Assembly (NCBI GenBank): GCA_965250285.1
Contig: OZ252299.1
Location: 5,888,001 to 5,952,000, forward strand
Direction: 5' to 3'
DNA: 64,000 nucleotides
Source of the DNA: Myxococcota bacterium
Lineage (GTDB): Bacteria > Myxococcota_A > UBA9160 > UBA4427
Shown piece after piece: positions 550-32,210 of this stretch. The notes beneath the pieces were generated by a model. That model did not search any database. It had not been told where the DNA came from and saw only the letters and a list, made by a program, of their open reading frames with translations. The position numbers and the translations under genes are program-made. Numbering within the stretch: position 1 is the first letter of the stretch; every line of letters begins with the position of its first letter.

Positions 550-565
550 TGGCACGCATGTTGAA
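550..565 (+). promoter_or_regulatory. Putative sigma54 (-24/-12) promoter of the nirB operon
   Basis: TGGCAC-GCATG-TTGAA; GG-N10 spacing is correct but -12 is GA rather than GC; lies just upstream of the ANTAR leader. Confidence 0.55.
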
Positions 566-640: not shown

Positions 641-770
641 CTCGCAATGATGCGAGCCGCTGAGCGAAGAGCACGGCTGCTCGGGAAGACCCAGCCAGGG
701 TGAGTCGGAGACAAGGGCGTCTCCACCTCGCGATCCGAGCGACGGATCGGCGGAGGGGGGGCGCCTTTTT
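641..770 (+). promoter_or_regulatory. ANTAR (NasT) twin-hairpin antitermination leader with overlapping intrinsic terminator
   Basis: Hairpin 1 CTCGC-AATGAT-GCGAG (641-656) and hairpin 2 GGAGAC-AAGGGC-GTCTCC (707-724) both have A1/G4 hexaloops; 713-729 can alternatively pair with 752-768, ending in a T-run. Confidence 0.85.
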
Positions 771-871
771 CATTCGGGCGACCCGCCTGCGCCCGAGAGC
801 GCGAGCACGAATCGAGCGCGGCCGAGCCGCGGTGAGAGCCAGAGATCAGAAGAAGAGGAAAGAGGAGAGCC

Positions 872-3808
872 ATGCAGGTGGAAGGGCGCGAGCGCATCTT
901 GGTCATCGGTAACGGCATGGTCGGGCAGCGCTTCTGCGAGCGACTGGTCGAGCTGGGCGGTATTGACCGGTTCGAGATCACCGTGCTCGGCGAAGAGCCG
1001 CGACCGGCCTACGACCGCGTGCACCTCTCCGAGTTCTTCGCCGGCCGGTCGGCCGACGAACTCGCGCTCGTCGGCCTCGACTGGTTCGCCGAGCACGGCG
1101 TGAACCTCGAGCTGGGCGCCCGCGCCCAAGCGATCGATCGCGCCGGAAGGAGCGTCACGACGACCGACGGCCGCACCTTCGCGTATGACCAGCTCGTCTT
1201 GGTGACGGGCTCGGCTCCGTTCGTGCCACCCATCGACGGCATCGATCTGCCGGGTGTCTACGTCTATCGCACGATCGAAGACCTCGAGGCCATTCGCGAT
1301 CGCGGCGCGAAGTCGCAGCGCGCGGCCGTCATCGGTGGCGGGTTGCTCGGCCTCGAGGCCGCCAAGGCGCTCGTCGAGATGAAGCTCGAGACCGCCGTCG
1401 TCGAGTTTGCGGATCGCCTGATGCCGCGACAGGTCGACGACGCGGGCGGTGCTCTGCTGCGGGGTGCGATCGAGGATCTCGGCGTGAAGGTGATGCTCGG
1501 TGCACGCACGCAGTCGGTCCTCGGCGACGAAGGCGTGACCGGACTCCGCTTCGACGGCGACGATGATCTGCCCGTCGACATGGTGGTGGTCTCGGCCGGC
1601 ATCCGGCCGCGAGACGAGCTGGCCCGCGACGCGGGCCTCGCCGTCGGCGAACGCGGCGGGATCGTGGTCGACGACCACCTCACGACTTCGGATCCGCACA
1701 TTCACGCGATCGGCGAGTGCGCGCTCTACGAGGGCTTCGTCTACGGCCTCGTGGCCCCGGGCTACGAGATGGCGGCGACGCTCGCGAGCCGACTCTTTGG
1801 CGGCGAAGACACGTTCACCGGCGCCGACATGTCGACCAAGCTCAAGCTGCTCGGCGTCGACGTCGCCTCGTTCGGTGACGCATTTGCCGATGAGGCACAG
1901 GGAGCGACACACATCGAGCCGGTCGTCTTTGAGGATCGGCTGCGCGGGGTGTATCAGAAGCTGCTGGTCGATCGGCACGCTGAGAAGCTCATCGGCGGCA
2001 TCCTCGTCGGTGACAGTGAGCCCTACGCCGTGCTCGCCGATGCGACGCGCCGCGGGCGCGATCTGCCCGATCGCCTCGAGAGCTGGCTCTTTGCCGGCGT
2101 CGCAGGAGATGACGGCGGTGGCATGCTCGACGACGACGGGGCGCAGGTCTGCTCGTGCAACGACGTCACGGTGGGGGCCGTGCGCGAGTCGGTTTCGGCG
2201 GGCGGTTGTCAGACGGTCGGCGAGATCAAGACGTGCACGAAGGCCGGGACCGGCTGCGGGGGATGTCTGCCGCAGCTGACGAAGATCCTCGCCGACGAGC
2301 TCGAGAAGTCGGGGCTCGAGGTGAGCCAGTCGATCTGCGAGCACTTCGACTATACGCGGCAAGAGCTCTACTGGATCGTGAAGCTCGGCCGGATCGAGAC
2401 GTTCGATGCCCTGCTCGCGAGTCACGGCCAGGGGGACGGCTGCGAGGTGTGTCGCCCGGCGGTCGCGTCGATCCTCGCAACGACCTGGAACGATCTGGTG
2501 CTCAACCACGCGTCGATTCAGGATACGAACGACCGATTCCTGGCCAACATCCAGCGCGGCGGTACCTACTCGGTGGTGCCGCGGGTGCCGGGCGGCGAGA
2601 TCACGCCCGAGAAACTCATCGTGCTCGGCGAGGTCGCCAAGAAGTACGACCTCTACTGCAAGATCACCGGCGGGCAGCGCATCGACCTGCTGGGCGCCCG
2701 CGTCGAGCAGCTGCCCGACATCTGGAAGGAGCTCGTCGAGGCCGGGTTCGAGAGTGGCCATGCCTACGGCAAGGCGATGCGCACCGTGAAGAGCTGCGTT
2801 GGATCGACCTGGTGCCGCTACGGCGTGCAGGATTCGGTGGGCATGTCGATCCGGATCGAAGAGCGCTACCGCGGCCTGCGCGCGCCCCACAAGCTGAAGA
2901 GCGCGGTTTCGGGATGCATTCGCGAGTGCGCCGAAGCCCAGAGCAAGGATTTCGGCGTCATCGCCACCGAGCAGGGCTGGAACCTGTACCTGTGCGGCAA
3001 CGGTGGCTCGAGCCCCCGCCACGCCGATCTGTTCGCCACCGACCTTTCCGATGACGAGCTGATCGCGCTCTGCGACCGGTTCCTGATGTTCTACATCCAG
3101 ACGGCGAAGCCGCTGCAGCGGACGGCGCGCTGGATCGAGGAGCTCGACGGGGGCATCGAGTATCTGAAGCAGGTCATCGTCGACGACGTGCTCGGCATCT
3201 GCGCGCAGCTCGAAGAAGACATGCAGCGACTCGTCGACACGTACGCATGTGAGTGGAAGGCGGTTGTCGACGACCCCGAGCGCCAGAAGGAGTTCCGGCA
3301 CTTCGTCGAGAGCCGGCTGCCCGATCGTGAGCTCGCATTCGTGCAGGAGCGCGGCCAGAAGCGACCGGTCGACTGGCCGGCTGTCGCCGAGGCCGAGCTT
3401 GCAGCGCGCACGGACACCCCGACCGAGGAGACCGCGGGCTGGGTTCGCGTCGCGAAGGTCGGCGATGTACCGCAGGACGGCGGTCGCGCCTTCGACCATG
3501 GCGGCGCGCAGATCGCAATCTTCCACTTCGCGCGCCGCGGCGAGTGGTACGCCAGTCAGAACGCGTGCCCGCACCGCAAGGACATGGTGCTGTCGCGCGG
3601 GCTGCTCGGGACCGACGGTGACGAGCCGAAGGTCGCGTGCCCGATGCACAAGAAGACGTTCTCGCTGCGCACCGGCAAGGGCTTGAACGATCCCTCCTTC
3701 GCTATGGAGACCTTCCCGGTCGAAGTGCGCGGTGATGACGTGTGGGTCAAGCTGCCGCCCTCGTCGACGCTCAAGCAGCGTCTCGGCTGCGCGGGGTCGT
3801 GCGGGTGA
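872..3808 (+). CDS. nirB: Assimilatory NADH-nitrite reductase large subunit with fused C-terminal NirD Rieske domain
   Basis: GNGMVG FAD motif, GGGLLGLEAA, BFD 2Fe-2S cysteines (CSCNDV, GCGGC), TVKSCVGSTWCRYG and SGCIRECAEA siroheme/4Fe-4S motifs; C-terminal CPH...CPMH Rieske domain. Confidence 0.97.
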   Translation: MQVEGRERILVIGNGMVGQRFCERLVELGGIDRFEITVLGEEPRPAYDRVHLSEFFAGRSADELALVGLDWFAEHGVNLELGARAQAIDRAGRSVTTTDGRTFAYDQLVLVTGSAPFVPPIDGIDLPGVYVYRTIEDLEAIRDRGAKSQRAAVIGGGLLGLEAAKALVEMKLETAVVEFADRLMPRQVDDAGGALLRGAIEDLGVKVMLGARTQSVLGDEGVTGLRFDGDDDLPVDMVVVSAGIRPRDELARDAGLAVGERGGIVVDDHLTTSDPHIHAIGECALYEGFVYGLVAPGYEMAATLASRLFGGEDTFTGADMSTKLKLLGVDVASFGDAFADEAQGATHIEPVVFEDRLRGVYQKLLVDRHAEKLIGGILVGDSEPYAVLADATRRGRDLPDRLESWLFAGVAGDDGGGMLDDDGAQVCSCNDVTVGAVRESVSAGGCQTVGEIKTCTKAGTGCGGCLPQLTKILADELEKSGLEVSQSICEHFDYTRQELYWIVKLGRIETFDALLASHGQGDGCEVCRPAVASILATTWNDLVLNHASIQDTNDRFLANIQRGGTYSVVPRVPGGEITPEKLIVLGEVAKKYDLYCKITGGQRIDLLGARVEQLPDIWKELVEAGFESGHAYGKAMRTVKSCVGSTWCRYGVQDSVGMSIRIEERYRGLRAPHKLKSAVSGCIRECAEAQSKDFGVIATEQGWNLYLCGNGGSSPRHADLFATDLSDDELIALCDRFLMFYIQTAKPLQRTARWIEELDGGIEYLKQVIVDDVLGICAQLEEDMQRLVDTYACEWKAVVDDPERQKEFRHFVESRLPDRELAFVQERGQKRPVDWPAVAEAELAARTDTPTEETAGWVRVAKVGDVPQDGGRAFDHGGAQIAIFHFARRGEWYASQNACPHRKDMVLSRGLLGTDGDEPKVACPMHKKTFSLRTGKGLNDPSFAMETFPVEVRGDDVWVKLPPSSTLKQRLGCAGSCG

Positions 3809-5469
3809 GCGCAGCCATCCGAGACGACGTCGAAGGCGGGCTGTCGCTCGTCGACCTGCTCCTGCAGGAGCAGTCCGACCTCTCAGCGGTCGAGCGCTTT
3901 GCGCTGCGCGAGGTCGATGCGCAGGCCCCGGCGATGGAGCCCTTCTATGAAGAGCTGATCCCGTCGGGCCTGCCCGGTGTCGGTGAGCAGTATGCGTTTC
4001 GCGTCGACCTCGACAGCTGTACCGGATGCAAGGCGTGCGTGACGGCCTGCCATAGCCTGAACGGGCTGGATGAGGGAGAGACCTGGCGGCGGGTCGGTCT
4101 GCTCGTCGGCGTCGAGCAAGGCGAGGCGGTGCAGCAGACGGTGACGGGCGCTTGTCACCACTGCGAGGATCCGGGCTGCATGTCGGGCTGCCCGGTGCAG
4201 GCGTACGAGAAGGATGAGGTCACGGGCATCGTCCGTCACCTCGACGATCAGTGCATCGGCTGCAAGTACTGCACGCTCACCTGTCCCTATGACGTGCCGC
4301 AGTACAACGAGCGACTCGGCATCGTGCGCAAGTGCGACATGTGTACGGGTCGGCTCTCGGAGGGCGAGGCGCCGGCGTGTGTGCAGGGCTGTCCGAACGG
4401 CGCGATCTCGATTGCGATCGTGCCCCAGGGTGGCGCGGCGGCCGCCGAGCGCGAGCTGCTCCCGAGCACCGGTAGCGAGCTCGTGCCGACGTCGATCACG
4501 CGGCCGAGCACGCAGTACGTTCATCAAGTGGAGCCGACCGCGGGACCGCGCGAGCTGCTGGCCGCCGACCGGGACGTCGTCGAGCCGAATCACGCGCACT
4601 GGCCGCTGGCGGTCCTGCTGGTGTTCGTGCAGACCTCGCTCGGCTTGACGGCCGTAGATTGCATCATGCGGCTCTTCGGCGTGGGGGGCCTCGCGCCCGC
4701 GGCCTGGACCCTCGCAGCGATCGGGGCCGCCGCAGCCGGTCAGGCGGCTGCCTTCCTTCACATCGGTCGCCCGCTCTACGCGTGGCGCGCCGTGCTCGGT
4801 TTGCGCACGTCATGGATGAGCCGCGAGATCGTCGCGCTCGGGCTCTATCTCGGCGCGCTCACGCTGCACTTCGCGGTCGCGACCGTGGCCCCGACCTTCG
4901 CGCCCGATCTCGCCGCGTCGCTGCCGATCGGTGCAGGCGTGACGAGCTTGCTCGCGGTCGCTGCGGGTGCGCTGGGGGTGACGACCTCGGTGATGATCTA
5001 CGTCGTCACGGGCCGCCCGCTCTGGTCGCTGAAGCGCACCGCGCTGCGATTCGCGAGCACGGCGTGGATCCTCGGCACGGCGGGGGGGGCTGCCATCGCG
5101 CTGATCACCGGCGCGCCTCTCGTGGTCTCGCTCGGCCTGTCGAGCGCCGGTGCGCTCGCCTTGGCGGCCAAGCTGCTCATCGAGGCGCGCGTGCGCGACA
5201 CCGACGTTTCATCGGATCGGACGGCGCTCGTGCGCAGCGCGCGACTCGAGCTCGGCGTGCTGGCCCCGCGCGTGCGAATGCGCACGATCCTGGCCGTCGC
5301 GGGTTTTGCCGCGCTGCTCTTGGCGACGTTCGTGAGCGCCGCGGGCGCGCCCGTCGCGCTCGTGGGCGTCGTTGCGCTCGTGGGAGCGGGCGCCTGCTTC
5401 GGGGGCGAGCTCGCCGAGCGACATCTGTTCTTTGCGGCTGAAGCGTCGCGCGGCATGCCGGGCGCATGA
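3805..5469 (+). CDS. DmsB-like 4Fe-4S dicluster domain fused to a DmsC/YnfH-type membrane anchor
   Basis: GTG start overlaps the nirB stop (GTGA). Motifs [38 protein letters not shown]...PACVQGCP, then HWPL, HIGRP, SWMSRE, about 8 TM helices and [10 protein letters not shown]. Confidence 0.9.
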
Positions 5470-5494
5470 GCGCGGGCACGAAGGAAAGGGCCGA

Positions 5495-7726
5495 ATGAGC
5501 ACGAAGAAGGCAGAACCGGTGAGCGAGGGCTGGCGCGCTCGGGTCGAATCACTGATCCGTGCGCAGGACGGGCCCTTGACCCGCGAGCTGCTGCGTGAGC
5601 CCGGCCGCTTCGGCCTCGGTCAGGTGCCCGAGAAGCGGGCGCCCGACGCAGCGACGACGGTCGTCTGTGGGTTCTGCGCGACTGGCTGTGGTCTGGTTGC
5701 GCATCTGCGAGAGGGCGAGGCGACGAACCTCTCACCTGCGGTGCAATACCCGGTCAACATCGGCATGGCGTGTCCGAAGGGCTGGGAGGCGCTGCGCGTG
5801 CTCGACGCCGACGACCGCGCCACGACGCCCCTCGTGCGCAACGATGCCGGCGAGCTCGTGCCGGTCGACTGGGCCACCGCGCTCGAGACGTTCGTCGACG
5901 GGTTCAAGCGCGTTCAGGCCGAGCACGGCGGCGATGCCTGCGCGTTCCTCGGCACGGGCCAGATCACGAGCGAAGAGCTCGCTTTTCTCGGTGCGCTCGG
6001 TCGTTTCGGCATGGGCTTCGCGCACGGCGACGGCAATACGCGTCAGTGCATGGCGACCGCCGTGACCGCGTACAAGGAGTCGTTCGGCTTCGACGCGCCG
6101 CCGTACAGCTACGACGACTTCGAGGAGTCGGACGTCATCGTTCTGGTGGGTTCGAACCTGTGCATCGCACACCCGATCATGTGGGAGCGTGTTTGCCGCA
6201 ACCCCCACGATCCGAAGATCGTCGTCGTCGACCCGCGACGCACCGAGACGGCGATGGCGGCGACCCATCACTACGCGATCGCGCCAAAGAGCGATCTCGA
6301 CTTCTTCTACGGGGTGGCCCACGAGCTGATTCGAAACGGCTGGATCGATCGCGAGTTCGTCGACGCGCACACCGAAGGCTTCGAGGCCTTCGAGGCCCAT
6401 GTCGCCGACTATGCGCCCGAGGTCGTGGCAGAGCGGGCCGGCGTGTCGGCCGACGCGATCCGAGAGTTGGCCCAGCTGATTCATGCCGGCAAGCGGGTCT
6501 CGTTCTGGTGGACGATGGGCGTGAACCAGGGACATCAAGCCGTGCGTGTCGCGCAGTCGATCATCGATCTCGCCCTGATGACCGGCCACATCGGACGCCC
6601 GGGGACCGGTGCGAACTCAATCACCGGTCAGTGCAACGCGATGGGCTCGCGCATGTTCAGCGCGACGAGCAGCCTCTACTGTGGTCGCCACTTCGGTGAC
6701 GAGAGCGATCGCCGTGAGGTCGCCGACATCCTCGACATTCCGGTCGAGTCGATCCCTTCGGAGGGAGGGCTCACGTACGACGAGGTGGTCGACGGGATTC
6801 ATGCAGGCCGGATCAAGGGTCTCTGGGTCGTTGCGACCAACGGCGCGCACACGTGGATCCATCAGAATGGCTTCAAGGAGGCGGTCGAGAAGCTCGACTT
6901 CCTGGTTGTGCAGGACATGTACTCGAGCACCGAGACCGCCGAGCTCGCCGATCTCGTCCTGCCTGCCGCGGGATGGGGCGAAAAAGATGGCACGTTCATC
7001 AACAGTGAACGGCGCATCGGCCTGATCAAGAAGGTGCGCCGGGCCCCCGGGCAGGCCCTCGCCGACTTTCAGATCTTTCGGCTCATCGCCGACGCCTGGG
7101 GATGTGGTGCGCTCTTCGACCGATGGAAGTCGCCCGAAGACGTCTTCGGCTTGCTGCGGTCTCTCACGCGCGGCCGCCCGAACGACATGTCGGGGATCGA
7201 CGGCTACTCGACGATCGACCAGGCCGGTGGGATTCAGTGGCCCCTGCGCGCCGGTGAGGCCGTGCCCGACACGGGGCGCCGGCTCTTCGAGGACGGCCAG
7301 TTCTATCGAGAAGGGGGGCGCGCCCGGTTCGTGTTCGAGGCGCCGATCGCGCCGCCCGAGCCGGTCGACGACGACTACCCGTTCGTGCTGCTCAGCGGCC
7401 GCGGCGCCTCGAGCCAGTGGCACACCGAGACGCGCACCGCGAAGTCACCCGTGCTGCGAAAGCTCCACCGGACCGAGCCCTACGTCGAGATCGCGCCCGA
7501 CGACGCGGCGCGTCTGGGCATCGACGACGAAATGGTGGTGGTGATTCGCTCCCGCCGTGGCTCGATGCAAGCGACCGCCGTGGTGCGGCCGACGGTGGCT
7601 CCGGGCCAGGTCTTCGTGCCCATGCACTACGCCGAGACCAATCGGCTCACGTACCCGTGCGTCGACCCGCACTCGCGTCAGCCCTCGTACAAGCACTGTG
7701 CGGTGCTCATCGAGCGAGCACCGTAG
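5495..7726 (+). CDS. Molybdopterin nitrate reductase catalytic subunit (NasA/NarB-like, cytoplasmic)
   Basis: CGFCATGC...CPKG 4Fe-4S motif, [52 protein letters not shown]; operon context. Confidence 0.9.
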
Positions 7727-7816: not shown

Positions 7817-7888
7817 CTTCTCTTGAGGCAAGAACCCATCACTCGGGCAGGTCGTCGCTCGGGTGGGCCGGGATCGTCGAGGGAGACG

Positions 7889-8470
7889 GTGGAAGAGAAG
7901 CTGCGCGTCATGCTGATCGATGCCCGCAAGGCGCGATCGGACGAGCTCACGCTCGGGCTCGAGGAGGCCGGGTGCCACGTCGTGCATCGCTCGACCCCCG
8001 CGTCGGATCTCGAGCACGCGGTCGCCGAGTGTGCGCCCGAGGTGATCATCATCGACCTCGATAGCCCCGACCGCGACACCCTCGAAGGCATGTGTCGCCT
8101 GGGGGGCGACCAGCCGCGGCCGATCGTGATGTTCATGGATGACACCGATCGCGACTCGATCCGCAGCGCGGTGCATGCAGGCGTGGCCGCCTATGTCGTC
8201 AAGGGGTCTTCTCCCGACCGCGTGCGGCCCGTGCTCGATGTGGCCATCGAGCGCTTCCGGCGCCATGAATCGCTCAAGGCCGAGCTGCGCGAGATGAAGT
8301 CGACGCTCGACGAGCGAAAGCTGGTCGAACGAGCCAAGGGCATCTTGATGGAGAAGCGAGGTGTCACCGAGAACGAGGCATACAAGACGCTGCGTACGAT
8401 GGCGATGAGCCGCAGCGTGAAGATTCAGGAGGTCGCCCGCCGTGTGATCGACATGGCCGACCTGCTCTGA
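7889..8470 (+). CDS. nasT: ANTAR-domain response regulator (NasT)
   Basis: REC-like domain (SPDRDTLE, AGVAAYVV) plus ANTAR (ERKLVERAKGILM...EAYKTLRTMAM); GTG start after GGAGA. Confidence 0.92.
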   Translation: MEEKLRVMLIDARKARSDELTLGLEEAGCHVVHRSTPASDLEHAVAECAPEVIIIDLDSPDRDTLEGMCRLGGDQPRPIVMFMDDTDRDSIRSAVHAGVAAYVVKGSSPDRVRPVLDVAIERFRRHESLKAELREMKSTLDERKLVERAKGILMEKRGVTENEAYKTLRTMAMSRSVKIQEVARRVIDMADLL

Positions 8471-8558: not shown

Positions 8559-9881
8559 ATGGCAGAAGGCATCGGGGGCCAAGAAGACAGTGTCGGCGAG
8601 CAGGCTGCGCACGGCCTCGAACGGCCCGAGCTCACCTTCGGGTTCATTGCGCTCACCGACTGCGCACCGCTGGTCATCGCGAAGGAGCGAGGCTTCTTCA
8701 GGAAGCACGGCCTGACGGTCAAGCTCGAACGCCAGGCATCGTGGGCCAATGTGCGCGACAAGGTCTGTCACGGTTTGCTGGACGGGGCGCAGATGCTCGC
8801 CCCGATGCCACTTGCATCGACCCTCGGCCTCTCGGGCATGTCGACGCCGATGGTCGTCCCCATCGGGCTCAGCCTCGGCGGCAATGCGATCACCGTATCC
8901 CGCGAGCTTCGCGCGCAGATGACCGACGTTTCGCCGGAGGGTGCGGCCGATCCGCGGCAGGCGGCGGGCGTGTTGCGCGAGGTGATCCGTGCCCGCCGCG
9001 ACGCGGGCTCCCCGCCGCTTCGCTTCGCAGCGGTGCATCCCCATTCGTCGCACTACTACCAGCTCTGCCATTGGATGGGCATGGCTGGGATCGATCCGCA
9101 CCGTGACGTCTCGCTGTCGATCGTGCCGCCGCCCTCGATGGTGCGCGCGCTCACCTCGGGCAAGATCGACGGCTACGCAGTGGGCGAGCCGTGGAGCCAG
9201 CAGGCCGCCGATCTCGGTGTCGGGTTTCCGATCGTGACCTCCGACGAGATCTGGGCCAGCGCGCTCGAGAAGGTGTTCGCCGTGACGGCCGAGTGGGCCG
9301 AGCGCCATCCGGCGACGCTACGAGCCGTGGTGCGAGCACTGCTCGAGGCGGCGGCGTGGGTCGACGACCCGGCACACCGACTCGAAACGGTGCACGTGGT
9401 CGCAAGCGAGAGCTACGTCGACGCCCCGGTCGAGACGGTGAGCCCGTCGATGGTCGATCGCGCGCCCGACGAGCCGGTGGGCGGACCTCGCACGCGGCAT
9501 GCCTTTCACCGCCATGCGGCGAACCATCCATGGGTGTCGCACGGGCTCTGGTACCTGATTCAGATGGTGCGTTGGGGCCAGGTCGAGAAGCCGATCGCGT
9601 TGCGCGAGACGGCGGAGCAGGTCTTTCGCCCCGACCTGCATCGCGACGCGGCCGAAGAGCTCGGCTGGCCCTTCCCGGAGATGTCCGAGAAGAGTGAGGG
9701 CTTGCACGACGCAGAGTGGTGGCTCGACGATGACGAGAAGTCGATTCGCATGGGCCCGGACCGCTTCATGGACGGGCACGTGTTTCGGCCCGAAGAGCCG
9801 ATCGCGTATCTCGAGGGCTTCGAGGTCTCCGACCTGCGGGTGCGACTCGACGATCTCGCCCTCCTGAATGGACCGTCATGA
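8559..9881 (+). CDS. nasS: Cytoplasmic nitrate-sensing NrtA-like protein (NasS)
   Basis: [28 protein letters not shown]; no signal peptide; directly after nasT. Confidence 0.85.
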   Translation: MAEGIGGQEDSVGEQAAHGLERPELTFGFIALTDCAPLVIAKERGFFRKHGLTVKLERQASWANVRDKVCHGLLDGAQMLAPMPLASTLGLSGMSTPMVVPIGLSLGGNAITVSRELRAQMTDVSPEGAADPRQAAGVLREVIRARRDAGSPPLRFAAVHPHSSHYYQLCHWMGMAGIDPHRDVSLSIVPPPSMVRALTSGKIDGYAVGEPWSQQAADLGVGFPIVTSDEIWASALEKVFAVTAEWAERHPATLRAVVRALLEAAAWVDDPAHRLETVHVVASESYVDAPVETVSPSMVDRAPDEPVGGPRTRHAFHRHAANHPWVSHGLWYLIQMVRWGQVEKPIALRETAEQVFRPDLHRDAAEELGWPFPEMSEKSEGLHDAEWWLDDDEKSIRMGPDRFMDGHVFRPEEPIAYLEGFEVSDLRVRLDDLALLNGPS

Positions 9882-10323: not shown

Positions 10324-11709
10324 ATGAAGTCTTTGAAGACACTCAATGGGTTTCGGATCACTGCAGCGATCCTGCTCTGGTCGGTTGCCATGGCATCGGC
10401 CCTCGCGTCAACGGCCCAGGCCGAGATGCTCGACGTCGAGAAGGACGAGCTCAAGTTCGGCTTCATCAAGCTGACCGACTGTGCGCCGCTCGTCATCGCG
10501 AAGGAGCTCGGCTTCTTCGAGGACGAGGGCCTGTTCGTCACCGTCGAGGCGCAGGCGAACTGGAAGATTCTCCTCGACCGGGTCATCGACGGGGAACTCG
10601 ACGGTGCACACATGCTCTCGGGCCAGCCGATCGGCGCGACGATCGGGATCGGCACCCAGGCGCACGTCGTCACCCCCTTCAGCATGGATCTGAACGGCAA
10701 TGGCATCACCGTGTCGAACGAGATCTGGAAGGAGATGAAGAAGAACGATCCGAAGCTCGCCGGGCCGAATCCGCCGCACCCGATCACTGCGGATGGCCTC
10801 GTGCCGATTGTCACCGAGCGCAAGGATCTGGGTGACCCGCTCAAGATGGGGATGGTCTTCCCGGTCTCGACCCACAACTACGAGCTTCGGTACTGGCTGG
10901 CCGCCTCGGGCATCAGCCCCGGCTTCTACACGAAGAACGACACGACGGGAACGACCGACGCCGACGTGCTGCTCTCGGTCACGCCGCCTCCGCAGATGCC
11001 TGCCACCCTCGAGCAGGGGACGATCCAGGGCTACTGCGTGGGCGAGCCTTGGAACCAGCAGGCCGTCTTCAAGGGTATCGGAGTGCCGGTCGTCACGAAC
11101 TACGAGATCTGGAAGAACAACCCCGAGAAGGTCTTCGGCATGACCTCCGAGTTCGTCGAAGCCAATCCGAACACCACCACGGCCATCGTCAAGGCGCTGA
11201 TCCGCGCCGGCAAGTGGCTCGATGCGTCGCCCGAGAACCGCAAGAAGGCAGTCGAGATCCTCGCGCGATCCGAGTACGTCGGGGCCGACGAAGAGGTCAT
11301 CGCGAACAGCATGACGGGCACGTTCGAGTTCGAGCGTGGCGACAAGCGCGAGATGCCCGACTTCAACGTCTTCTTCCGGCATGACGCGACCTACCCGTTC
11401 TACAGCGACGCCGTGTGGTTCCTCACGCAGATGCGACGCTGGGGGCAGATCGGCGAGGAGAAGCCCGACGGCTGGTACGACGAGGTCGCTCGCAAGGTCT
11501 ACAAGCCCGCGATCTACGAGAAGGCGGCAGCGCTTCTCGTTGAAGAGGGGCACCTCACGGCCGACGAAGTACCGAAGACCGACGGCTACAAGCCGCCCAC
11601 CGGCGACTTCATCGACGGGATCGTCTACGACGGCAAGAAGCCCAACGCCTATCTCGCGAGCTTCGAGATCGGCAACCAGGGCAAGCGCAGCATGGCAAGC
11701 GCCAACTGA
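10324..11709 (+). CDS. nrtA: Nitrate ABC transporter substrate-binding protein (NrtA/NasF)
   Basis: Signal peptide; [47 protein letters not shown]. Confidence 0.95.
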
Positions 11710-11719
11710 TCCAACCCCT

Positions 11720-11748
11720 GCCCTCCCGGCCGAAGGGGCCGGGAGGGC
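11720..11748 (+). repeat. Perfect 12-bp-arm hairpin between nrtA and nrtB (possible mRNA stabiliser or attenuator)
   Basis: GCCCTCCCGGCC-GAAGG-GGCCGGGAGGGC. Confidence 0.6.
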
Positions 11749-11793
11749 GGCTCGCCCCGAGCACGACGAACACCGCTGGAAGGCAGGACTCTC

Positions 11794-12810
11794 ATGGAAG
11801 GCAAGGCTCGCATCATCAAGGGACTCGAGACGATTGGTCTCGGCATCTTCGTCCCGCTGGTCCGACTCGCGACCGGCGAAGACCCGAAGACGCAGCTCCG
11901 AACACTGAGTCGAGAGATCCTGATCCCGATCCTCGCGATCGTGATCTTCCTCGGCGCGTGGGCGATTCTCGCCGGCAGCGTCGAGACGAGCATCGGCTCC
12001 GTGCCGGGCCCGGTGGCGGTCTGGGCCGAGGCGGGCAACCTCGTCGACGAGCACCGTGCAGAGCGCGTGAAGGAGCAGGAGTTCCATCAGCGCATGGTCA
12101 CGCTGAAGGCCAAGTACGAGGCGGCCGGGAAGCCGTGGAAGGAACGGAACTACTCCGGCAAGCCCACGTTCTTCGACCAGATTCTCACGAGCCTGAAGAC
12201 GGTGTTCGCAGGTTTCGTGATCGCTTCGCTCATCGCCGTGCCGCTCGGCATCCTGTGTGGCTTGAGCGATCGGATCTACGCCGCGATGAACCCGTTGATC
12301 CAGATCTTCAAGCCTGTCTCACCTCTGGCATGGCTCCCGATCGTGATGATCCTCGTGAGCGCGCTCTACACCACGTCCGACCCGATGTTCGAGAAGAGCT
12401 TCATCAGCTCGGCGATCACCGTGGCGCTCTGCTCGCTCTGGCCCACGCTGGTGAACACTGCCCTCGGCGTGGCGAGCGTCGACCGCGATCATCTGAACGT
12501 CGCCAAGGTGCTTCGCCTCGGGACGTTCGAGACGGTGTTCAAGATCATCATTCCGTCGGCCATGCCGCTCATCTTCACCGGCCTTCGCCTGTCGCTCGGC
12601 GTCGGCTGGATGGTGCTGATCGCGGCCGAGATGCTGGCTCAGAACCCGGGTCTTGGGAAGTTCGTCTGGGACATGTTCCAGAACGGCAGCAGCCAGACGC
12701 TGGCGCAGATCATGGTCGCGGTGTTCACGATCGGCGGGATCGGCTTCGCGCTCGATCGCATGATGACCGTGATGCAGAACTTCGTTTCGTTCGAAGCTTC
12801 GGTGGGCTGA
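11794..12810 (+). CDS. nrtB: Nitrate ABC transporter permease
   Basis: [40 protein letters not shown]. Confidence 0.95.
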
Positions 12811-12820
12811 GGATTTCGAG

Positions 12821-13681
12821 ATGGCTTTTCTAGAGCTCAATGACGTATCGAAGGGCTACGGGGAGGGCGCTCACAGAACCGAGGTTCTGTCGAACGTCAA
12901 CCTGAGCCTGGCCGAAGGCGAGTTTCTCGCGATCGTCGGTTTCTCAGGGAGTGGCAAGACCACGCTCATCTCGCTGATTGCCGGCCTGATCGAGGCCGAC
13001 GCGGGCACGATCGAGATGGCAGGCGAGCCGATCAAAGGGCCCGGGCCTGACCGCGGCGTCGTCTTCCAGAACTACTCGCTGCTGCCGTGGCTGACGGTGC
13101 GCGGCAACGTGATGCTCGCCGTCAAGAAGATCCACAGCTCGAAGTCGACGGCCGAACAGATCGAGATCGCCGACCACTACATCGACATGGTCGGCCTGAC
13201 TCAGGCCAAAGAGAAGCGGCCCCTCGAGCTCTCGGGCGGGATGCGTCAGCGCGTCGCGGTGGCGCGGGGTCTGGCCACCGATCCGAAGCTGATGCTGCTC
13301 GATGAACCGCTCTCGGCGCTCGATGCCCTGACGCGCGCGACGCTGCAGGACGAGATCGAGCGGATCTGGCGCAGCGATCAGAAGACGGTCGTCCTGATCA
13401 CGAACGACGTCGACGAGGCGATCCTGCTCGCCGATCGCATCGTGCCGCTGAAGCCCGGCCCGAACGCGACGCTCGGTCCGGCCTTCCCGGTCCCGCTCGG
13501 TCGCCCGCGCGACCGCACATCGATGAACCACGACCCCGAGTTCAAGAAGATCCGCAACGAGGTCACGAAGTACCTGCTTCAGGTGGGCGAAGAGCAGTCG
13601 GCCAAGGCCGCGGTCGCGAGCGTCGACCTGCCCGACCTCGAGCCCCTGGATCTCACCGCACCGAAGCGAAGGAGCGTTTGA
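12821..13681 (+). CDS. nrtC: Nitrate ABC transporter ATPase
   Basis: [31 protein letters not shown]. Confidence 0.9.
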
Positions 13682-13683
13682 TC

Positions 13684-14487
13684 ATGGCCGGATTTCTCGA
13701 ATGCGTCGGTCTCAACAAGACCTACGACACGCCCAAGGGGCCGGCGGTCATCGTCGACGGCTTCGATCTAGAGCTGAAGCGCGGCGAGTTCGTCACGCTG
13801 ATCGGGCACTCGGGCTGTGGCAAGTCGACCGTGCTGTCCATGGTGGCCGGCCTGAATGCGATCACCGACGGCGCCGTTGTCGTCGGTGGCAAGGAGATCG
13901 CTGGCCCAGGGCCTGATCGTGGCGTGGTCTTTCAGGCGCCCTGTCTACTCCCTTGGCTCACGGCCTTCGAGAACGTGATGCTCGGGGTGGCGAAGGTATA
14001 CGCACATGGCACCGATCGTCAGCGTCGCGAGATCTGCGAGCACTATCTCTCCCGGGTCGGGCTCGCCGACGCGATGTTCAAGCGACCGGCCGAGCTCTCG
14101 GGCGGCATGCGCCAGCGCGTCGGCATCGCCCGCGCCCTGGCGCTGAAGCCCAAGGTGCTGCTGCTCGACGAGCCCTTCGGCATGCTCGACTCGCTGACGC
14201 GGATCGAGCTGCAGGAGCTGCTGCTCGACATCTGGGAAGACAACAAGATTACGACGCTGATGGTCACCCATGACGTCGACGAAGCACTCTACCTCTCGGA
14301 TCGGGTCACGATGATGACCAATGGGCCGGCAGCGAAGGTGGGGCAGATTCTCGACGTCCCCTTCCCGCGTCCGCGGGATCGGGCTGCCTTGCTCGAGACC
14401 GATGAGTACTACGCGCTCCGCGAACGCCTGATCGCCTTCCTCGAAGGCCAGGATCTCGATCGGGGGAGCTTCGAAGACGCCGCCTGA
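13684..14487 (+). CDS. nrtD: Nitrate ABC transporter ATPase
   Basis: [31 protein letters not shown]. Confidence 0.9.
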
Positions 14488-14676: not shown

Positions 14677-16011
14677 ATGGAACGGACCGAATCGCTGGAT
14701 CGAACGATGCGCGACTTCACACGGAGGTGTGTGGGCGCTGCGGTTGTGATGGCAGTATGGGCGCTGCTCTGCGTGGGCACGTCCGCGTGGGCGCAAGAGG
14801 GGGAGTCGGACCAGGCGAAGAACCTCGTCGATGCGCTCATCCATGGCACGCCGACGCTCAACGTGCGTGGCCGCATCGAGCTCGCCAAGGCGGAGGGGCT
14901 CGAACGCTCCGAAGCCTACACGGTGCGCACGGAGCTCGGGTACGGCACGAAGCCGTGGTACGGGCTTCGCGTCTACACCAGCTTCGAGAACGTCGCGACC
15001 GCGACGCAGAAGACGTACTGGGTGCCGACGGAGGGGCCGAACACCGAGGGCCAGACGGTCATCGCGGATCCGCCAGGCACCGAAGTTCAGCAGGGCTACC
15101 TCGAGTACAAGAACGCGAAGCTCCTAGATTCGATGACGAGGGGCGGTCGTCAGGAGATCATCTACGACGACTGGAGATTCATCGGCAACGTGGTCTGGCG
15201 TCAGAATCAGCAGACCTTCGACGCCGTGACGGCCGTTTCGAAGCTCGGGCTCGACGATCTGAAGTTTCAGTACGGCTGGATCGGCAACGTCAACCGAATC
15301 TTTGGCGGCGGCGGGGCCAACCCGAATCTCTCTGACTTCCGGTCGAACTCGCATGTGCTCAACGCGAACTACAAGGTCGCTCAGCAGCTGGACGTCACGG
15401 CATTCGCCTACCTGCTCGACCTGAAGACCAATGCGCCGGCGCCAGCCGACGACTCGGCGAACTCGAACCAGAGCTACGGCTTCATTGCGAAGGGCAAGAT
15501 CCCGACTGGCGACAGCGTGACGTTCGACTACTTCTTCTCGTACGCCTTCCAGAAGAACTACGCGGACAAGGCCATCGACTACAAGGCCAACTACATCCAT
15601 GGTGCGGCTGGCATCAAGCTCAAGGGCCTGGGTCGCCTCGGCGCAGGGTACGAGCTGCTTGGGAGCGACGACGGCAGGCAGCAGTTCCTGACACCACTCG
15701 CGACCGCGCACAAGTTCAATGGTTGGGTCGACGTCTATCTGAACAATGGTGGTCCGGCGGGCCTTCGAGACCTCTACGTCAACCTCGCGCCGGCCATGCC
15801 TTGGAAGCTCAAGCCGAAGATCATCTATCACCGCTTCTGGGACGACAACACAAACACGCATCGAGGCGACGAGATCGATGCTGAGGTCAGGCGCCACTTC
15901 GGCAAGCATCTGATGCTTCTGGCGAAGGGTGGCTACTTCATCAGCGCGACGGACGCGTTCCCCGAAGTCGACACCTGGCGATTCTGGTTCGACGTGGTCA
16001 TCAAGTTCTAG
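14677..16011 (+). CDS. Alginate-export-family outer-membrane beta-barrel (probable nitrate porin)
   Basis: Signal peptide; GRQEIIYDDWRFIGNVVWRQNQQTFDA, TPLATAHKFNGW; C-terminal F; start could be 14707. Confidence 0.8.
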   Translation: MERTESLDRTMRDFTRRCVGAAVVMAVWALLCVGTSAWAQEGESDQAKNLVDALIHGTPTLNVRGRIELAKAEGLERSEAYTVRTELGYGTKPWYGLRVYTSFENVATATQKTYWVPTEGPNTEGQTVIADPPGTEVQQGYLEYKNAKLLDSMTRGGRQEIIYDDWRFIGNVVWRQNQQTFDAVTAVSKLGLDDLKFQYGWIGNVNRIFGGGGANPNLSDFRSNSHVLNANYKVAQQLDVTAFAYLLDLKTNAPAPADDSANSNQSYGFIAKGKIPTGDSVTFDYFFSYAFQKNYADKAIDYKANYIHGAAGIKLKGLGRLGAGYELLGSDDGRQQFLTPLATAHKFNGWVDVYLNNGGPAGLRDLYVNLAPAMPWKLKPKIIYHRFWDDNTNTHRGDEIDAEVRRHFGKHLMLLAKGGYFISATDAFPEVDTWRFWFDVVIKF

Positions 16012-20661: not shown

Positions 20662-21855
20662 CTACCAGGCGGCGGGCAGGGCGCGCGGTCCGCGCAGCAG
20701 AATGCCCCGCGGCGCGTGTGCCTCGGCGTCGATGAGACGCAGACCGGGCAGTCGCTCGGTCAGCACGCGCAGCGCCACCCGCAGGTTCTTCTGGGCGAGG
20801 TGCATGCCCGGGCACGTGCGCAGCCCGGGGCCGAACGTGAGCAGACCCTCGGGTCGGCGTTCGATGTCGAAGCGATCGGGGTCGGGGAAGACGTCTGGAT
20901 CGCGATTCGCCGCGGCGATGCCGAACAAGACCGACGTGCTCGGCTTCATCGCACAGCCTTCGAACTCGATCTCATCGTCGGGTCGGCTGAACCGCGGCTG
21001 GGCCGCGACCGGCGGACACCAACGAAGCAGCTCCTGCACGGCGTCGTCGACGCGCCCGGGCTCGTCCACGCATGCGCGCCACGCGTCGGGATGCGTGCCG
21101 AGCGCAAAGATCAGGTTGCCGAGGGCATCCGACGTCGTCGTCGCGCCCGCCGTGAAGAAGAGGCGGATGTGCGCCAGCATCTTCTCGCGCGAGACGGGCG
21201 CTCCTTCGACCTCGGTCGCCAGCCAACTGCTGATGACGTCGTCGCGTGGCTCGGCCTCGCGGGCATCGATGATCGGTTCGACGTATCGCGTGAGCAGCGC
21301 GTCGGCGGCCCGACTCTTGGCCAGGTCGCGGCCCCCGAACATCAGATCCATCGACCATTGATAGAAGTCGTCCTCGCGGTCGCGCGGCAGCCCCAGCTGG
21401 CGGCAGATGATCGCGAACGCGAAGCGGTGGCTGAACGTCGGAACGAGATCGGCGCGCCCGTCGGCTTCGATGCGGTCGATCAGCTCATGGCCGATCGGGA
21501 CCAGCTCGGCCTCTTCGAGGCGGTCGATCTCGGTGCGACGGAAAGCCGGCGTCATCGGGGGACGCCAGACGCGATGCCCGGGTGAATCCATCGACATGAA
21601 CGTCTCGCCGATGAAAGGCTGCGAGATGATCTGATACGCGTGTCCGGCGGGGAAGCGCTCGCCATCGCGGAATGCGTTGGCGAGAGCTTCGTAGCCGACG
21701 ATGTAGTGAACGGGCAGGGCGCCGCCCAGCGCGTGGACGGGCACGACCGGGCCGTGCGCGCGGAGCGCGTGCAGCCCCTCGGCGAACGCGGGGCCCGGCA
21801 TCTCGTCGTAGTACCAATCGGCTTCGAGCCAGTTGTATGACTGCGAGTCGGTCAT
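20662..21855 (-). CDS. Cytochrome P450
   Basis: I-helix AGATTT, ELLR (ExxR), AANRDP, FGPGLRTCPG heme motif. Confidence 0.93.
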   Translation of the reverse strand: MTDSQSYNWLEADWYYDEMPGPAFAEGLHALRAHGPVVPVHALGGALPVHYIVGYEALANAFRDGERFPAGHAYQIISQPFIGETFMSMDSPGHRVWRPPMTPAFRRTEIDRLEEAELVPIGHELIDRIEADGRADLVPTFSHRFAFAIICRQLGLPRDREDDFYQWSMDLMFGGRDLAKSRAADALLTRYVEPIIDAREAEPRDDVISSWLATEVEGAPVSREKMLAHIRLFFTAGATTTSDALGNLIFALGTHPDAWRACVDEPGRVDDAVQELLRWCPPVAAQPRFSRPDDEIEFEGCAMKPSTSVLFGIAAANRDPDVFPDPDRFDIERRPEGLLTFGPGLRTCPGMHLAQKNLRVALRVLTERLPGLRLIDAEAHAPRGILLRGPRALPAAW

Positions 21856-22144
21856 GGGAAGCTCCTCGCGCGCGGGCCGTCGCCTGTTCGTCGCCACCGG
21901 GCGTGGGCCCGGCGCAGGCGCGTCCGCTCGCGTGTTCGGCCGCGAAGCGGGGGTTTCCGCACCCTGCGCGCGATGCATCGTGATAGGGTGCGGCAGTCTA
22001 ACCCAGCGAGGGTCGCCCACCTCGTCGCCCATCGAACCCACGCCGCACGCCCGCGATTCGTCCCTCGCCGGTGTCTCGGCGGGCTTCGTTGGCGACACGC
22101 GCCCGTGGCGCGCAGCAGCGATCCCCGCTCTCAGGAGCGCAACG

Positions 22145-24658
22145 ATGCACTCGATCCGGCGGCGGCACCTCCTTCCTCTTCTCTCGGTCTTCGCGCTGGC
22201 GCTCCTCGGCACCGAGTCGTGCGACAAGTACGGGCTCGGCAGCCCCTTCCTGTTCTTCCGAGCACCGCTCTTCCTGCAGGTCTCACTGCCCGATGCCGTG
22301 GCCGTCGATCTGCACCTGAGCGAGCTCGTCGACGTCGAGTCGCTCGAGATCTTGCTCGACGACGAAGCGCTCGATCCGGCCAGCTACCAGATCAGCGAGG
22401 GCGAAGGCCGATTCGAGATCTTCTCGCCGCTCAAGGCCGAGGCGGTTCTGTCGGGCCTCGAAGACGGTGAGCACTGGCTCGTCGCGCGGGCGACGGTCGA
22501 CTTCTTCTTTTTCGAGAAGACGCTGCATGCCGCCACGCGCTTCGACACGACCGATCTCGAGCGGCCCGACGAGTGCGAGATCCTGAACAACGCAAACTGC
22601 ACGCTGCCCTTCCCGTCGTCGCGCTTCCTCGACGATGTCGGTGACGAGACGGCCTCGGGTCGGCGCATGAACTTTCCGGTCGTCACGCTCACGGGCGTAC
22701 CGGGCCCTGAGCTCGACCCCGCACCGCTGAACCGGCTCGATGGCTTCGCGCCCACGGTGCAGATCCTCGCCCACCTCGAAGGCGTCGACCCCGAAGCGTC
22801 GGATGCTGCGCGGCTGCTGCCCGGCGTGCCGCAGAGCCCGCCCTACGTCGACGTCCGCACCCACGACGATCGCTCGCTCGACGACGACAGCCCGACCGTG
22901 CTGCTCGACGTCGAAACCGGTGAGCGGATCCTGCACTGGGTCGAGGTCGATCAGACGCCGGCCGCGCTCGCCGATGCGTCGCGACAGGTGCTGTTCATTC
23001 GGCCGGCCGTCGCGCTTCACCCCGACCGCCAGTACGTCGTCGCGCTGCGCAACATGAAGGATGCCGCCGGCGAGCTGCTCGAGCCCGAGCCGGTCTTCCG
23101 CGCCCTGCGCGACCGGTCGCCGAGTACGATCCCGGCGCTCGAGGCGCGCCGGGACGAGATGGAGGCGATCTTCGACGCGCTCAAGGCGTCGGGCATCTCG
23201 CGCTGGAATCTGCAGCTCGCATTCGGGTTCGCGACGCGCAGCGAAGAGCAGCTGCACGAGCGCATGCTCACGATGCGCGACGATGCCCTCGGTTGGCTCG
23301 CGGCGCTCGCTCCCGATGACGTCTCGGGCTTGACCGACCTCGAGGTCGACGAGCTCAGCAGCTGCGAAGGCGACTCGACGGGCACGTGGCGCAAGATCAA
23401 GGGCAACTTCCACGGCCCGAGCTACATGACGGCCGACATCGACAACCCCCTCAACGTGGCCGTCCTCAACATCGGCGCCGACGGGCTGCCCGAGATGAAC
23501 GGCACCCACCCCATCGCCTGGTCTCTCGCAGTGCCGTGCTCGGTCTATCGAGGCGAGGCCACCGGCTACCCGCTCCTGCTCGGTCATGGCTTTCTCGGCA
23601 ACGGCGAAGGGCTGGTGAACGGCTTCGCGAGCGGCGGCATCTTCGGCGCCGACGCACCGATCTCGTACATCGCCGGTGCGACCGACTGGCGAGGCCTCTC
23701 GCGAGGCTTCACCGGGCCCGACGCACTCAATATCGTGTTGAACGTGATCGGAACGGTCGACACGGGCAACCGATTCAATACGTTCGAGACGCTGCCCCAT
23801 CGCCTGCAGCAGGGTGTGGTCAATACGCTCGTTCTGTCGCGCATGATGAAGAGCGGCTTCTTCAACCGACTCGAGGCGCTGCAACGCGTGCCGGGCGATC
23901 CGTCGACCGGCGTGTTCACGCCCGACGAGGAGATGTTCTACTTCGGCGTCAGCCTGGGCGGCATCTACGGCACGATGTACGCCGGTCTCAACCAGGACAC
24001 GATTCGCCACAATGTCGTCGTTCCGGCCATGAACTTCTCGCTCTTGCAGCAGCGCTCGACGCAGTTCCCCGTGTTCCTGGCATTGCTCGAGGCGATCGGC
24101 CTCACCGACCCGATGGAGATGGCGGTGTTGCTGGGTGTACAGCACGAGCTCTGGGTCGATGCCGATCCGACGGCCTACATCCGCAACGTGACGGGCAACG
24201 TCGATGCGCCGCTGCCCAACACGCCGCCGAAGAAGATGCTCGTCACCGTGGCCTGGCTCGACAAGCAGGTGTCGAACCAGGCGACCGAGATCTTCACCCG
24301 GTCGATGGGGGTGCCGAACGTGGGTGGATCGATGCAGCAGGCCATGCCCGGCATCGAGGACATCTCGGCTGACTGGGGGGCCGGTGAACCGGGCCTCGAG
24401 TCGGGCATGCAGATCTTCGACTCGGGCTACTTCGACATCTTCGACCCGGCCTTCGACCCGGTCGTGCCGGCGCTCGCGAACCTGATCCCGAGCAGCGCAT
24501 GCGACCCCCACAACGCTCCGCTCTCGACGCCCGCGGCGATCGACCAAATTGCCGCATTCCTGCAGCCGGGTGGGCTCGTTTGGAGCTTCTGTGACGGTGC
24601 CTGCGATGCGCAGTCCGAGCACGAGAAGCCGAGCGGCGAGTGCAACCCGCTCGAGTGA
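22145..24658 (+). CDS. Large exported alpha/beta-hydrolase-like (lipase-type) protein, probable lipoprotein
   Basis: Hydrophobic N-terminus with Cys; PFPS, LDGF, GHGFLG and GVSLGG nucleophile elbow; C-terminal DPH. Confidence 0.65.
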   Translation: MHSIRRRHLLPLLSVFALALLGTESCDKYGLGSPFLFFRAPLFLQVSLPDAVAVDLHLSELVDVESLEILLDDEALDPASYQISEGEGRFEIFSPLKAEAVLSGLEDGEHWLVARATVDFFFFEKTLHAATRFDTTDLERPDECEILNNANCTLPFPSSRFLDDVGDETASGRRMNFPVVTLTGVPGPELDPAPLNRLDGFAPTVQILAHLEGVDPEASDAARLLPGVPQSPPYVDVRTHDDRSLDDDSPTVLLDVETGERILHWVEVDQTPAALADASRQVLFIRPAVALHPDRQYVVALRNMKDAAGELLEPEPVFRALRDRSPSTIPALEARRDEMEAIFDALKASGISRWNLQLAFGFATRSEEQLHERMLTMRDDALGWLAALAPDDVSGLTDLEVDELSSCEGDSTGTWRKIKGNFHGPSYMTADIDNPLNVAVLNIGADGLPEMNGTHPIAWSLAVPCSVYRGEATGYPLLLGHGFLGNGEGLVNGFASGGIFGADAPISYIAGATDWRGLSRGFTGPDALNIVLNVIGTVDTGNRFNTFETLPHRLQQGVVNTLVLSRMMKSGFFNRLEALQRVPGDPSTGVFTPDEEMFYFGVSLGGIYGTMYAGLNQDTIRHNVVVPAMNFSLLQQRSTQFPVFLALLEAIGLTDPMEMAVLLGVQHELWVDADPTAYIRNVTGNVDAPLPNTPPKKMLVTVAWLDKQVSNQATEIFTRSMGVPNVGGSMQQAMPGIEDISADWGAGEPGLESGMQIFDSGYFDIFDPAFDPVVPALANLIPSSACDPHNAPLSTPAAIDQIAAFLQPGGLVWSFCDGACDAQSEHEKPSGECNPLE

Positions 24659-27077: not shown

Positions 27078-27155
27078 CGTCGAACCGATTCGCAGCGGCG
27101 CAGATCGCGCCGAGGGGTCCAGTCGATTCGGCGGCGGTCGAGGTGGAGGTTTGAA

Positions 27156-32137: not shown

Positions 32138-32210
32138 GTCTCGCTCCTCAGCGTGCTGCACGTGCGTACGGCGGCATTTCAGTCGCGGCCGACGAGGGCC
32201 ACGCGTTCGA

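Follow-up and report, generated by a model that had tools for sequence, protein, structure and literature searches.

The window, that is, the whole stretch of 64,000 nucleotides (nt) analysed here from a Myxococcota genome of the UBA4427 lineage (contig OZ252299.1, positions 5,888,001 to 5,952,000), carries a nitrate cluster whose genes all lie on the + strand. Within it we studied a gene pair: a fusion of a DmsB-type iron-sulfur protein, here called the wire, with a DmsC-type membrane anchor, and a molybdenum reductase encoded just downstream. The pair is real, conserved and widespread. Its sequences and structure model make it probable that the two proteins act as a cytoplasm-facing quinol:nitrate oxidoreductase serving assimilation. 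A preliminary description of the locus had reported a ferredoxin with four [4Fe-4S] clusters fused to a DmsC anchor, overlapping the nirB stop and lying 5' of the reductase, and open reading frame (ORF) coordinates, cysteine motifs and a match to PF04976 confirm this arrangement. The fusion runs from GTG at 3805 to TGA at 5469, sharing 4 nt (GTGA) with the nirB-nirD stop; the reductase (ATG 5495 to TAG 7726) starts 25 nt past the fusion stop. The description had also denied the reductase a twin-arginine translocation (Tat) signal and a C-terminal BFD domain, correctly so: there is no arginine pair in its first 100 residues, and the domain search returned no BFD. The cluster contains the following features.

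550..565, +: sigma54-like promoter 5' of nirB, a TGGCAC-N-TTGA variant from a pattern scan with a presumed consensus; the variant also lies 5' of nirB in 2/5 related loci
641..656, +: ANTAR-like hairpin 1, A..G.. hexaloop on a 5-bp stem (presumed motif)
707..724, +: ANTAR-like hairpin 2, 6-bp stem, sharing sequence with the 5' arm of the leader terminator; similar hairpin in 2/5 related loci
710..771, +: predicted leader terminator, long stem and U-run (RNAfold, -40.5 kcal/mol)
872..3808, +: nirB-nirD fusion, NADH-dependent siroheme nitrite reductase, 978 amino acids (aa); TIGR02374 999 bits and TIGR02378 101 bits, both above cut-off
3805..5469, +: DmsB-DmsC-type fusion, 554 aa, four [4Fe-4S] motifs and an 8-helix quinone-type anchor, predicted inverted
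4597..5433, +: DmsC (PF04976) anchor domain inside the fusion; H319/E341 equivalent to E. coli DmsC H65/E87 by alignment
5495..7726, +: Nas/Nap-clade molybdoenzyme, 743 aa, N-terminal arm, C58/61/65/93, K95, Mo-ligand C185
7801..7816, +: second sigma54-like site, 5' of nasT (pattern scan)
7823..8470, +: nasT-like receiver-ANTAR regulator (Pfam ANTAR, Response_reg); longest ORF, real start probably later
8559..9881, +: nasS-like nitrate sensor (NMT1_2), so labelled from the adjoining nasT
10324..14487, +: nrtABCD-type nitrate ATP-binding cassette (ABC) importer: binding protein, permease and two ATPases (domain search)
14677..16011, +: alginate-export-family outer-membrane porin (domain search), present in related nitrate clusters too

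The iron-sulfur wire and its membrane anchor

The wire contains 16 cysteines in four ferredoxin motifs (C72-82, C117-129, C150-160 and C177-196), all invariant across 128 aligned homologues. Pfam places Fer4_11 at residues 115-203 and DmsC (PF04976) at residues 265-543, the latter at 36 bits against a cut-off of 22. An AlphaFold model of the fusion, built from the 128 rows, reached a mean predicted local distance difference test (pLDDT) of 90.7 and a predicted template modelling (pTM) score of 0.89, with eight long helices in the anchor. In structural searches the wire domain matched FdnH, ArrB and PsrB, and the anchor was most similar to ActC (Z 23.6, root-mean-square deviation (rmsd) 3.0, 283 aligned residues); menaquinone-bound PsrC also matched (Z 20.6, rmsd 3.4, 243 aligned), and cytochrome bd subunits ranked next (Z 18-19). 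H319, S336-W337 and S339-R340-E341 are invariant in 128/128 rows, and H319 and E341 align with H65 and E87 of E. coli DmsC in 28/28 anchors. We take H65 to be a quinol-site residue of the E. coli protein. E87 is linked to menaquinol binding by the title of a work cited in PMC6303296. By alignment and model, the anchor appears to hold a functional quinone site.

The genome, a single contig of 6.25 Mb at 95% completeness, has no PF04976 match other than the fusion. A sequence search with the fusion yielded at least 7790 clusters at E 1e-40 or better, under source names such as dimethyl sulfoxide (DMSO) reductase chain B or formate dehydrogenase subunit, and named homologues of the fusion include records from Myxococcota, Deltaproteobacteria and Planctomycetota. 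A search of plasmids with the anchor gave no match.

The orientation of the anchor was read from the lysines and arginines (K+R) in its loops. Wire-side loops hold a mean of 18.7 (density 0.17) versus 2.2 (0.046) on the opposite side, and the wire side is the richer in 128/128 fusion rows. The bias is reversed in 72 controls, namely E. coli DmsC and YnfH plus 70 enterobacterial relatives (the 280-290-aa members of a set of 120; 82-100% identical), which average 4.1 (0.040) on the wire side versus 7.9 (0.18) on the other and show a fusion-like bias in 0/72 cases. Eight stand-alone anchors share the bias of the fusion (K+R 15-20 versus 0-2); these adjoin Tat-less molybdoenzymes of about 960-970 aa, and we read them as SoeC-like. 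The iron-sulfur domain attaches at the N-terminus of the anchor, on the same side as the His/Glu loop, and a Tat motif was found in none of the 128 fusions and none of 37 reductase matches. Because the charge bias is inverted relative to DmsC, the prediction is a wire on the cytoplasmic side, as in SoeABC, which is how the topology check proposed in the preliminary description turned out. A periplasmic, Nap- or Dms-like reading is ruled out by the missing Tat motif together with the charge bias.

The catalytic subunit and its occurrence with the fusion

The reductase consists of the domains Molybdop_Fe4S4, Molybdopterin and Molydop_binding (PF04879, PF00384 and PF01568) only. The cysteines of its iron-sulfur motif (C58/61/65/93) are invariant, and K95, RQCMA (with C185) and GQCNAMG complete its set of motifs. 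In a quick 26-row tree it groups with Nas/Nap enzymes, apart from both FdhF rows (deep supports 82-92, order inside the group unsure), and 23 other rows are nearer to it than the SoeA-like row. Ahead of the iron-sulfur motif lies a conserved arm, about 57 residues long, with a GPLT motif in 31/33 aligned rows; the two reductases without it are divergent enzymes of one verrucomicrobial genome (G116). Paracoccus NasC has only five residues ahead of its iron-sulfur motif, according to an extract of PMC6618116. Judged from its sequence, the catalytic subunit is a nitrate reductase. A reductase of the same clade, P0293, bears an SdhB/FrdB-like iron-sulfur domain fused N-terminally where the arm would be.

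Several other class assignments were considered. Formate dehydrogenase, the best sequence match in the Protein Data Bank and backed by a high TIGR01591 score, is ruled out by motifs and tree. NapA does not fit, given the missing arginine pair and 318 bits against TIGR01706 (cut-off 931). DmsABC proper is excluded by the same lack of an arginine pair, the inverted K+R bias and a place outside the DmsA clade; the DmsA-type model TIGR02166 gave 97 bits (cut-off 778). With SoeABC the pair shares an anchor predicted to face the cytoplasm but not a catalytic subunit of the SoeA clade, as tree and nitrate-type motifs indicate. What the pair does have is the make-up of a complex iron-sulfur molybdoenzyme of the DmsABC/PsrABC type, namely a molybdo-bis(pyranopterin guanine dinucleotide) (Mo-bisPGD) subunit, a four-cluster subunit and an 8-helix anchor with His/Glu. 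Its catalytic part has the hallmarks of Nas/NarB: Nas/Nap clade, Cys-ligated site, no Tat signal, and clustering with nitrite reductase, importer and nitrogen regulators.

Four genome samples show fusion and reductase together in one and the same set of genomes, the answer to the neighbourhood survey that had been suggested. Among 40 relatives, six encode the full fusion and the same six a close reductase, all with a nirB match (one under the cut-off). In 151 Verrucomicrobiota genomes both are found in the same 12; G116, one of these, has a divergent pair and in addition a 53% reductase lacking arm and adjacent fusion. In 151 Planctomycetota genomes, 14/20 DmsC matches fall in frames 561-668 aa long; immediately downstream of each lies one of the 14 reductase matches (41% or more). 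In 201 proteobacteria (class of G197; G239 counts in the denominator only), 26 have DmsC in frames >600 aa, a length used as proxy for the fusion and confirmed by four cysteine motifs in 10/26; the same 26 encode a near-complete reductase of a second type at 67% or more, and two further genomes have partial reductase matches without such an anchor. Reductase and nirB lie near the fusion in 9/10 of the confirmed proteobacterial loci. A homologue search with the second-type fusion as query returned one weak match. The design is common and not unique to the UBA4427 genome, and wire plus anchor and reductase are likely to form a physical complex, as their co-occurrence suggests.

Gene neighbourhoods were surveyed in 64 loci with 62 fusion relatives, mostly from Verrucomicrobiota and three from Planctomycetota (L063 and L064, both formate-dehydrogenase loci, were dropped); neighbourhood counts cover 65 loci with a long fusion match, one contig being counted twice. 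In the 29 loci where the pair is not adjacent, 5/5 genomes searched carry a 58-60% identical reductase elsewhere. A single 1256-aa frame in the order wire, anchor, reductase (L059:7926-11696), known from one assembled genome, may be a real fusion or a lost stop and is given little weight. Other triple fusions were rejected as Rosetta-stone evidence, since the G008 case spans unknown bases and P0302, P0321 and P0326 look like frameshifted assemblies; the best 150 representatives contained no intact triple fusion.

Two side observations concern these loci. Upstream of the fusion, the verrucomicrobial loci (L001-L059) encode NirA and a free-standing flavodoxin (about 195 aa), often with a PP2C-kinase fusion and NarK. 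In G116, a second-type fusion and reductase (L088:636-14000) lie directly upstream of ORFs that read as nifH/nifD/nifK-like, and the separate arm-less reductase sits nearby in a transporter cluster (L087).

Nitrogen context, proposed electron route and rival explanations

The nirB leader contains two A..G.. hexaloop hairpins, the second overlapping the predicted terminator, and two stems of 5 bp or more arose in 23/2000 shuffles. Its elements were labelled with the sigma54 consensus and ANTAR hairpin motif as we take them to be. The leader terminator (710..771) was not recovered by a short-loop terminator scan, and a sigma70/terminator scan gave chance-level results. Together, nasTS, the ATP-driven importer and the leader elements indicate assimilation. 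Nitrogen control through sigma54 and NasST, as previously proposed, gains computational support from the sigma54-like and ANTAR-like elements. Elsewhere in the genome, G000:C1:3625888-3631098 holds, beside an ABC importer, a gene that reads as cyanase-like and a second NasT-like regulator (51% identity).

In the route we propose, nitrate would be imported via the porin and the ABC importer, while NasS/NasT would relieve termination in the nirB leader with the sigma54 promoter driving. Quinol would give up its electrons at the H319/E341 site, on the cytoplasmic side of the membrane, and these would pass through the four clusters to the iron-sulfur cluster of the reductase and on to Mo-Cys185, the N-terminal arm being a possible docking element; NADH-dependent NirB-NirD would then turn nitrite into ammonium. 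With quinol and nitrate sites both predicted to be cytoplasmic, the enzyme itself would not be electrogenic, and NADH would be spared at the first two-electron step. The electron donor is probably menaquinol: menD, on which the menaquinone case depends, scored above cut-off in the genome, where mqnA was not found and no UbiB scored above cut-off.

The membrane-tethered, cytoplasm-facing and quinone-linked reductase envisaged in the preliminary description is supported computationally by charge bias, quinol-site equivalents, co-occurrence, active site and tree. Its remark that no NADH diaphorase lies nearby stands for the cluster and fails in a wider sense, as NirB, here a NirB-NirD fusion, carries its own FAD/NADH module (profile searches) and a second NirB/NasB-like FAD+BFD protein is encoded outside the window (G000:C1:2150532-2152559). 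The missing diaphorase is a weak argument because Paracoccus NasC is fed by NasB/NasG without one, as an extract of PMC6618116 describes. The second FAD+BFD protein is fused to a C-terminal His-bearing membrane segment and followed by a multihaem cytochrome c (G000:C1:2149119-2152559, - strand); upstream of the two is a globin-like ORF. L088 has a homologous pair immediately upstream of its second-type fusion and reductase.

Several observations weigh against a quinol-fed assimilatory enzyme. NirB-type enzymes can feed Nas with no diaphorase involved, as in the Paracoccus case above. The reductase stays under the cut-off of every NCBIfam nitrate-reductase model, including NasA and NasC (494/1000 and 414/1100). 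The fusion precedes nasA in only 26/55 loci having 1.5 kb downstream, in a survey dominated by Verrucomicrobiota, and it tracks the position of nirA more than that of nasA. Catalytic relatives in L087 (53%) and Cetobacterium (43%) have no adjacent fusion and P0293 has its different, SdhB-like iron-sulfur module, so that the catalytic clade does not depend on this one donor. The orientation controls are closely related to one another and the helix borders were set by hand, although the contrast is large nonetheless; co-occurrence counts among kin are not independent, and the genome sets are samples. Our literature search found no experiments on the fusion/reductase family.

The position of the fusion also opens a different explanation, in which it serves mainly the nitrite reductase side as a membrane scaffold or relay, electrons from NirB or from flavodoxin/NirA reaching the nitrate reductase by way of the four clusters, and the quinone site acting as an overflow, working in the reducing direction or feeding nitrite reductase. 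The overlap with the nirB stop in the UBA4427 window speaks for it, as does the surveyed gene order: in the 62 loci with 1.5 kb upstream, the fusion follows nirA in 52 (often with flavodoxin) and nirB in 7, and it stays there where nasA moved. However, the fusion occurs with two unrelated nitrite reductases, NirA and NirB, while the nitrate reductase type remains constant, and the relatives G004 and G027 have nirB without a full-length fusion match. Judged by siroheme potentials, quinol is a weak donor for siroheme enzymes, yet ample for nitrate. The nitrate couple lies at about +433 mV in an extract of PMC10100899. We regard this explanation as unlikely. Hardly better placed is a role with the same chemistry and a dissimilatory main job, the enzyme being a low-oxygen electron sink, standing in for NarGHI and relying on the assimilatory transporter. 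Neither narG nor napA scores above cut-off in the genome (best NarG 28 bits), and L134 encodes a conventional BFD-bearing NasA beside the fusion-linked pair in one cluster (L134:4552-12192), which allows a non-assimilatory role and counts against an assimilatory one. A single-subunit nitrate reductase of Methylotenera, which may or may not belong to the fusion-linked family, is said, second-hand in an extract of PMC7240106, to serve both routes. Set against these points are the assimilatory context (nirBD, ATP-driven importer, nasTS, ANTAR-like hairpins and sigma54-like sites), the lack of a NarK-type match in the genome with the single query used, and the nirB matches of all six relatives with the pair.

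Still further from the evidence is the idea of a conventional soluble Nas that takes its electrons from NirB-NirD or ferredoxin, with the fusion as a passenger or the partner of another molybdoenzyme. Soluble Nas enzymes without BFD are known (haloarchaeal NasA, included in the tree), and 14 PF00384 matches in the genome would offer other partners. The joint presence and absence of fusion and reductase matches in the four genome samples and the GPLT arm motif, missing only from the divergent G116 enzymes, speak against it, and we consider it very improbable. We retain a quinol:nitrate oxidoreductase for assimilation as the preferred reading.

Beyond the nitrate cluster, the window holds two tandem paralogous ORFs (25071-29120, +; 668 and 654 aa) that read as resembling TonB-dependent receptors. 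A large secreted-looking protein without a family match is encoded by a 941-aa ORF (21833-24658, -), with cytochrome P450-like ORFs near it at 20662-22227 and 30860-32161.

Relation to known systems and biological meaning

To our knowledge, the known assimilatory nitrate reductases are soluble and fed by NADH or ferredoxin, and quinol-fed ones are respiratory. Ferredoxin is one known Nas donor. NADH is the other, as given in an extract of PMC6618116. With NasA, NasC and NarB (e.g. Paracoccus denitrificans NasBGC) the fusion-linked reductase shares Cys-ligated molybdenum, a cytoplasmic location and the nirBD/nasTS/nrtABCD context; unlike it, the known enzymes are soluble, the Paracoccus one has five residues rather than 57 before the iron-sulfur motif, and the reductase studied here has no C-terminal BFD. 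E. coli DmsABC and YnfEFGH resemble the pair in the DmsB-type wire, the PF04976 anchor with its H65/E87 equivalents and the presumed path from quinol to molybdenum. They differ in that DmsAB is translocated (an extract of PMC10609526), the anchor charge bias is opposite, B and C are separate, and the catalytic subunit belongs to another clade.

SoeABC, the sulfite-oxidising complex of Allochromatium vinosum and Ruegeria pomeroyi, is a membrane-bound molybdoenzyme with an iron-sulfur subunit and an NrfD/PsrC-like anchor that works in the cytoplasm (extract of PMC6335251). Anchors of the SoeC-like type share the inverted charge bias and His/Glu, whereas the subunits of SoeABC are three and separate, its sulfite-oxidising one, at about 960-970 aa, is remote in the tree, and the electron direction is the reverse. 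NarGHI, like the enzyme proposed here, reduces nitrate on the cytoplasmic face with quinol electrons through a four-cluster wire, but NarG belongs to another clade and the anchor here has the PsrC/DmsC fold. NarI is a dihaem cytochrome b that makes a redox loop. By analogy, the enzyme may be seen as SoeABC running backwards on a Nas catalytic subunit, or as NarGHI fitted with a different anchor.

A named counterpart is known from Thiogranum longum, where P0260 and P0244 are entered in the database as catalytic and transmembrane subunits of 'nitrate reductase (quinol-dependent)', a naming for which the searches found no paper; the first pair of L134 carries the same quinol-dependent name in its source. 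The idea had therefore already occurred to an annotator. The Thiogranum pair likewise has a Tat-less, BFD-less reductase beside a four-cluster/DmsC fusion, the inverted charge bias and a narK-nirB cluster, but it is a distant relative (identities 38% and 28%), the gene order is reversed, and the anchor groups are not sisters in a small tree. Full-text literature searches found no description of the pair, which subscription journals and supplements, outside that search, may contain.

On balance we lean, with a little less assurance than for the reading of the pair itself, towards a third, widespread electron input for bacterial nitrate assimilation, in which a Nas subunit joined to an inverted, fused DmsBC taps respiratory quinol. 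It would be what Verrucomicrobiota that assimilate nitrate, many Planctomycetota, the UBA4427 lineage and many proteobacteria normally use to reduce nitrate, routinely mislabelled as subunits of DMSO reductase or formate dehydrogenase; it may have had multiple origins, with electron-sink duty as a possible additional role. Given these names, metagenome counts of DMSO and nitrate pathways may be skewed. Within the DmsC family, the fusion would be a clear example of inverted membrane topology, and the existence of cultured carriers, among them Luteolibacter algae (L055), Rubripirellula obstinata (P0119) and Thiogranum longum, makes direct testing possible. If the reading is true, abundant bacteria of fresh water, soil and sea would draw directly on the respiratory chain to assimilate nitrate, the energy cost and oxygen dependence of assimilation would change, and the split between assimilatory and dissimilatory nitrate reduction would blur.

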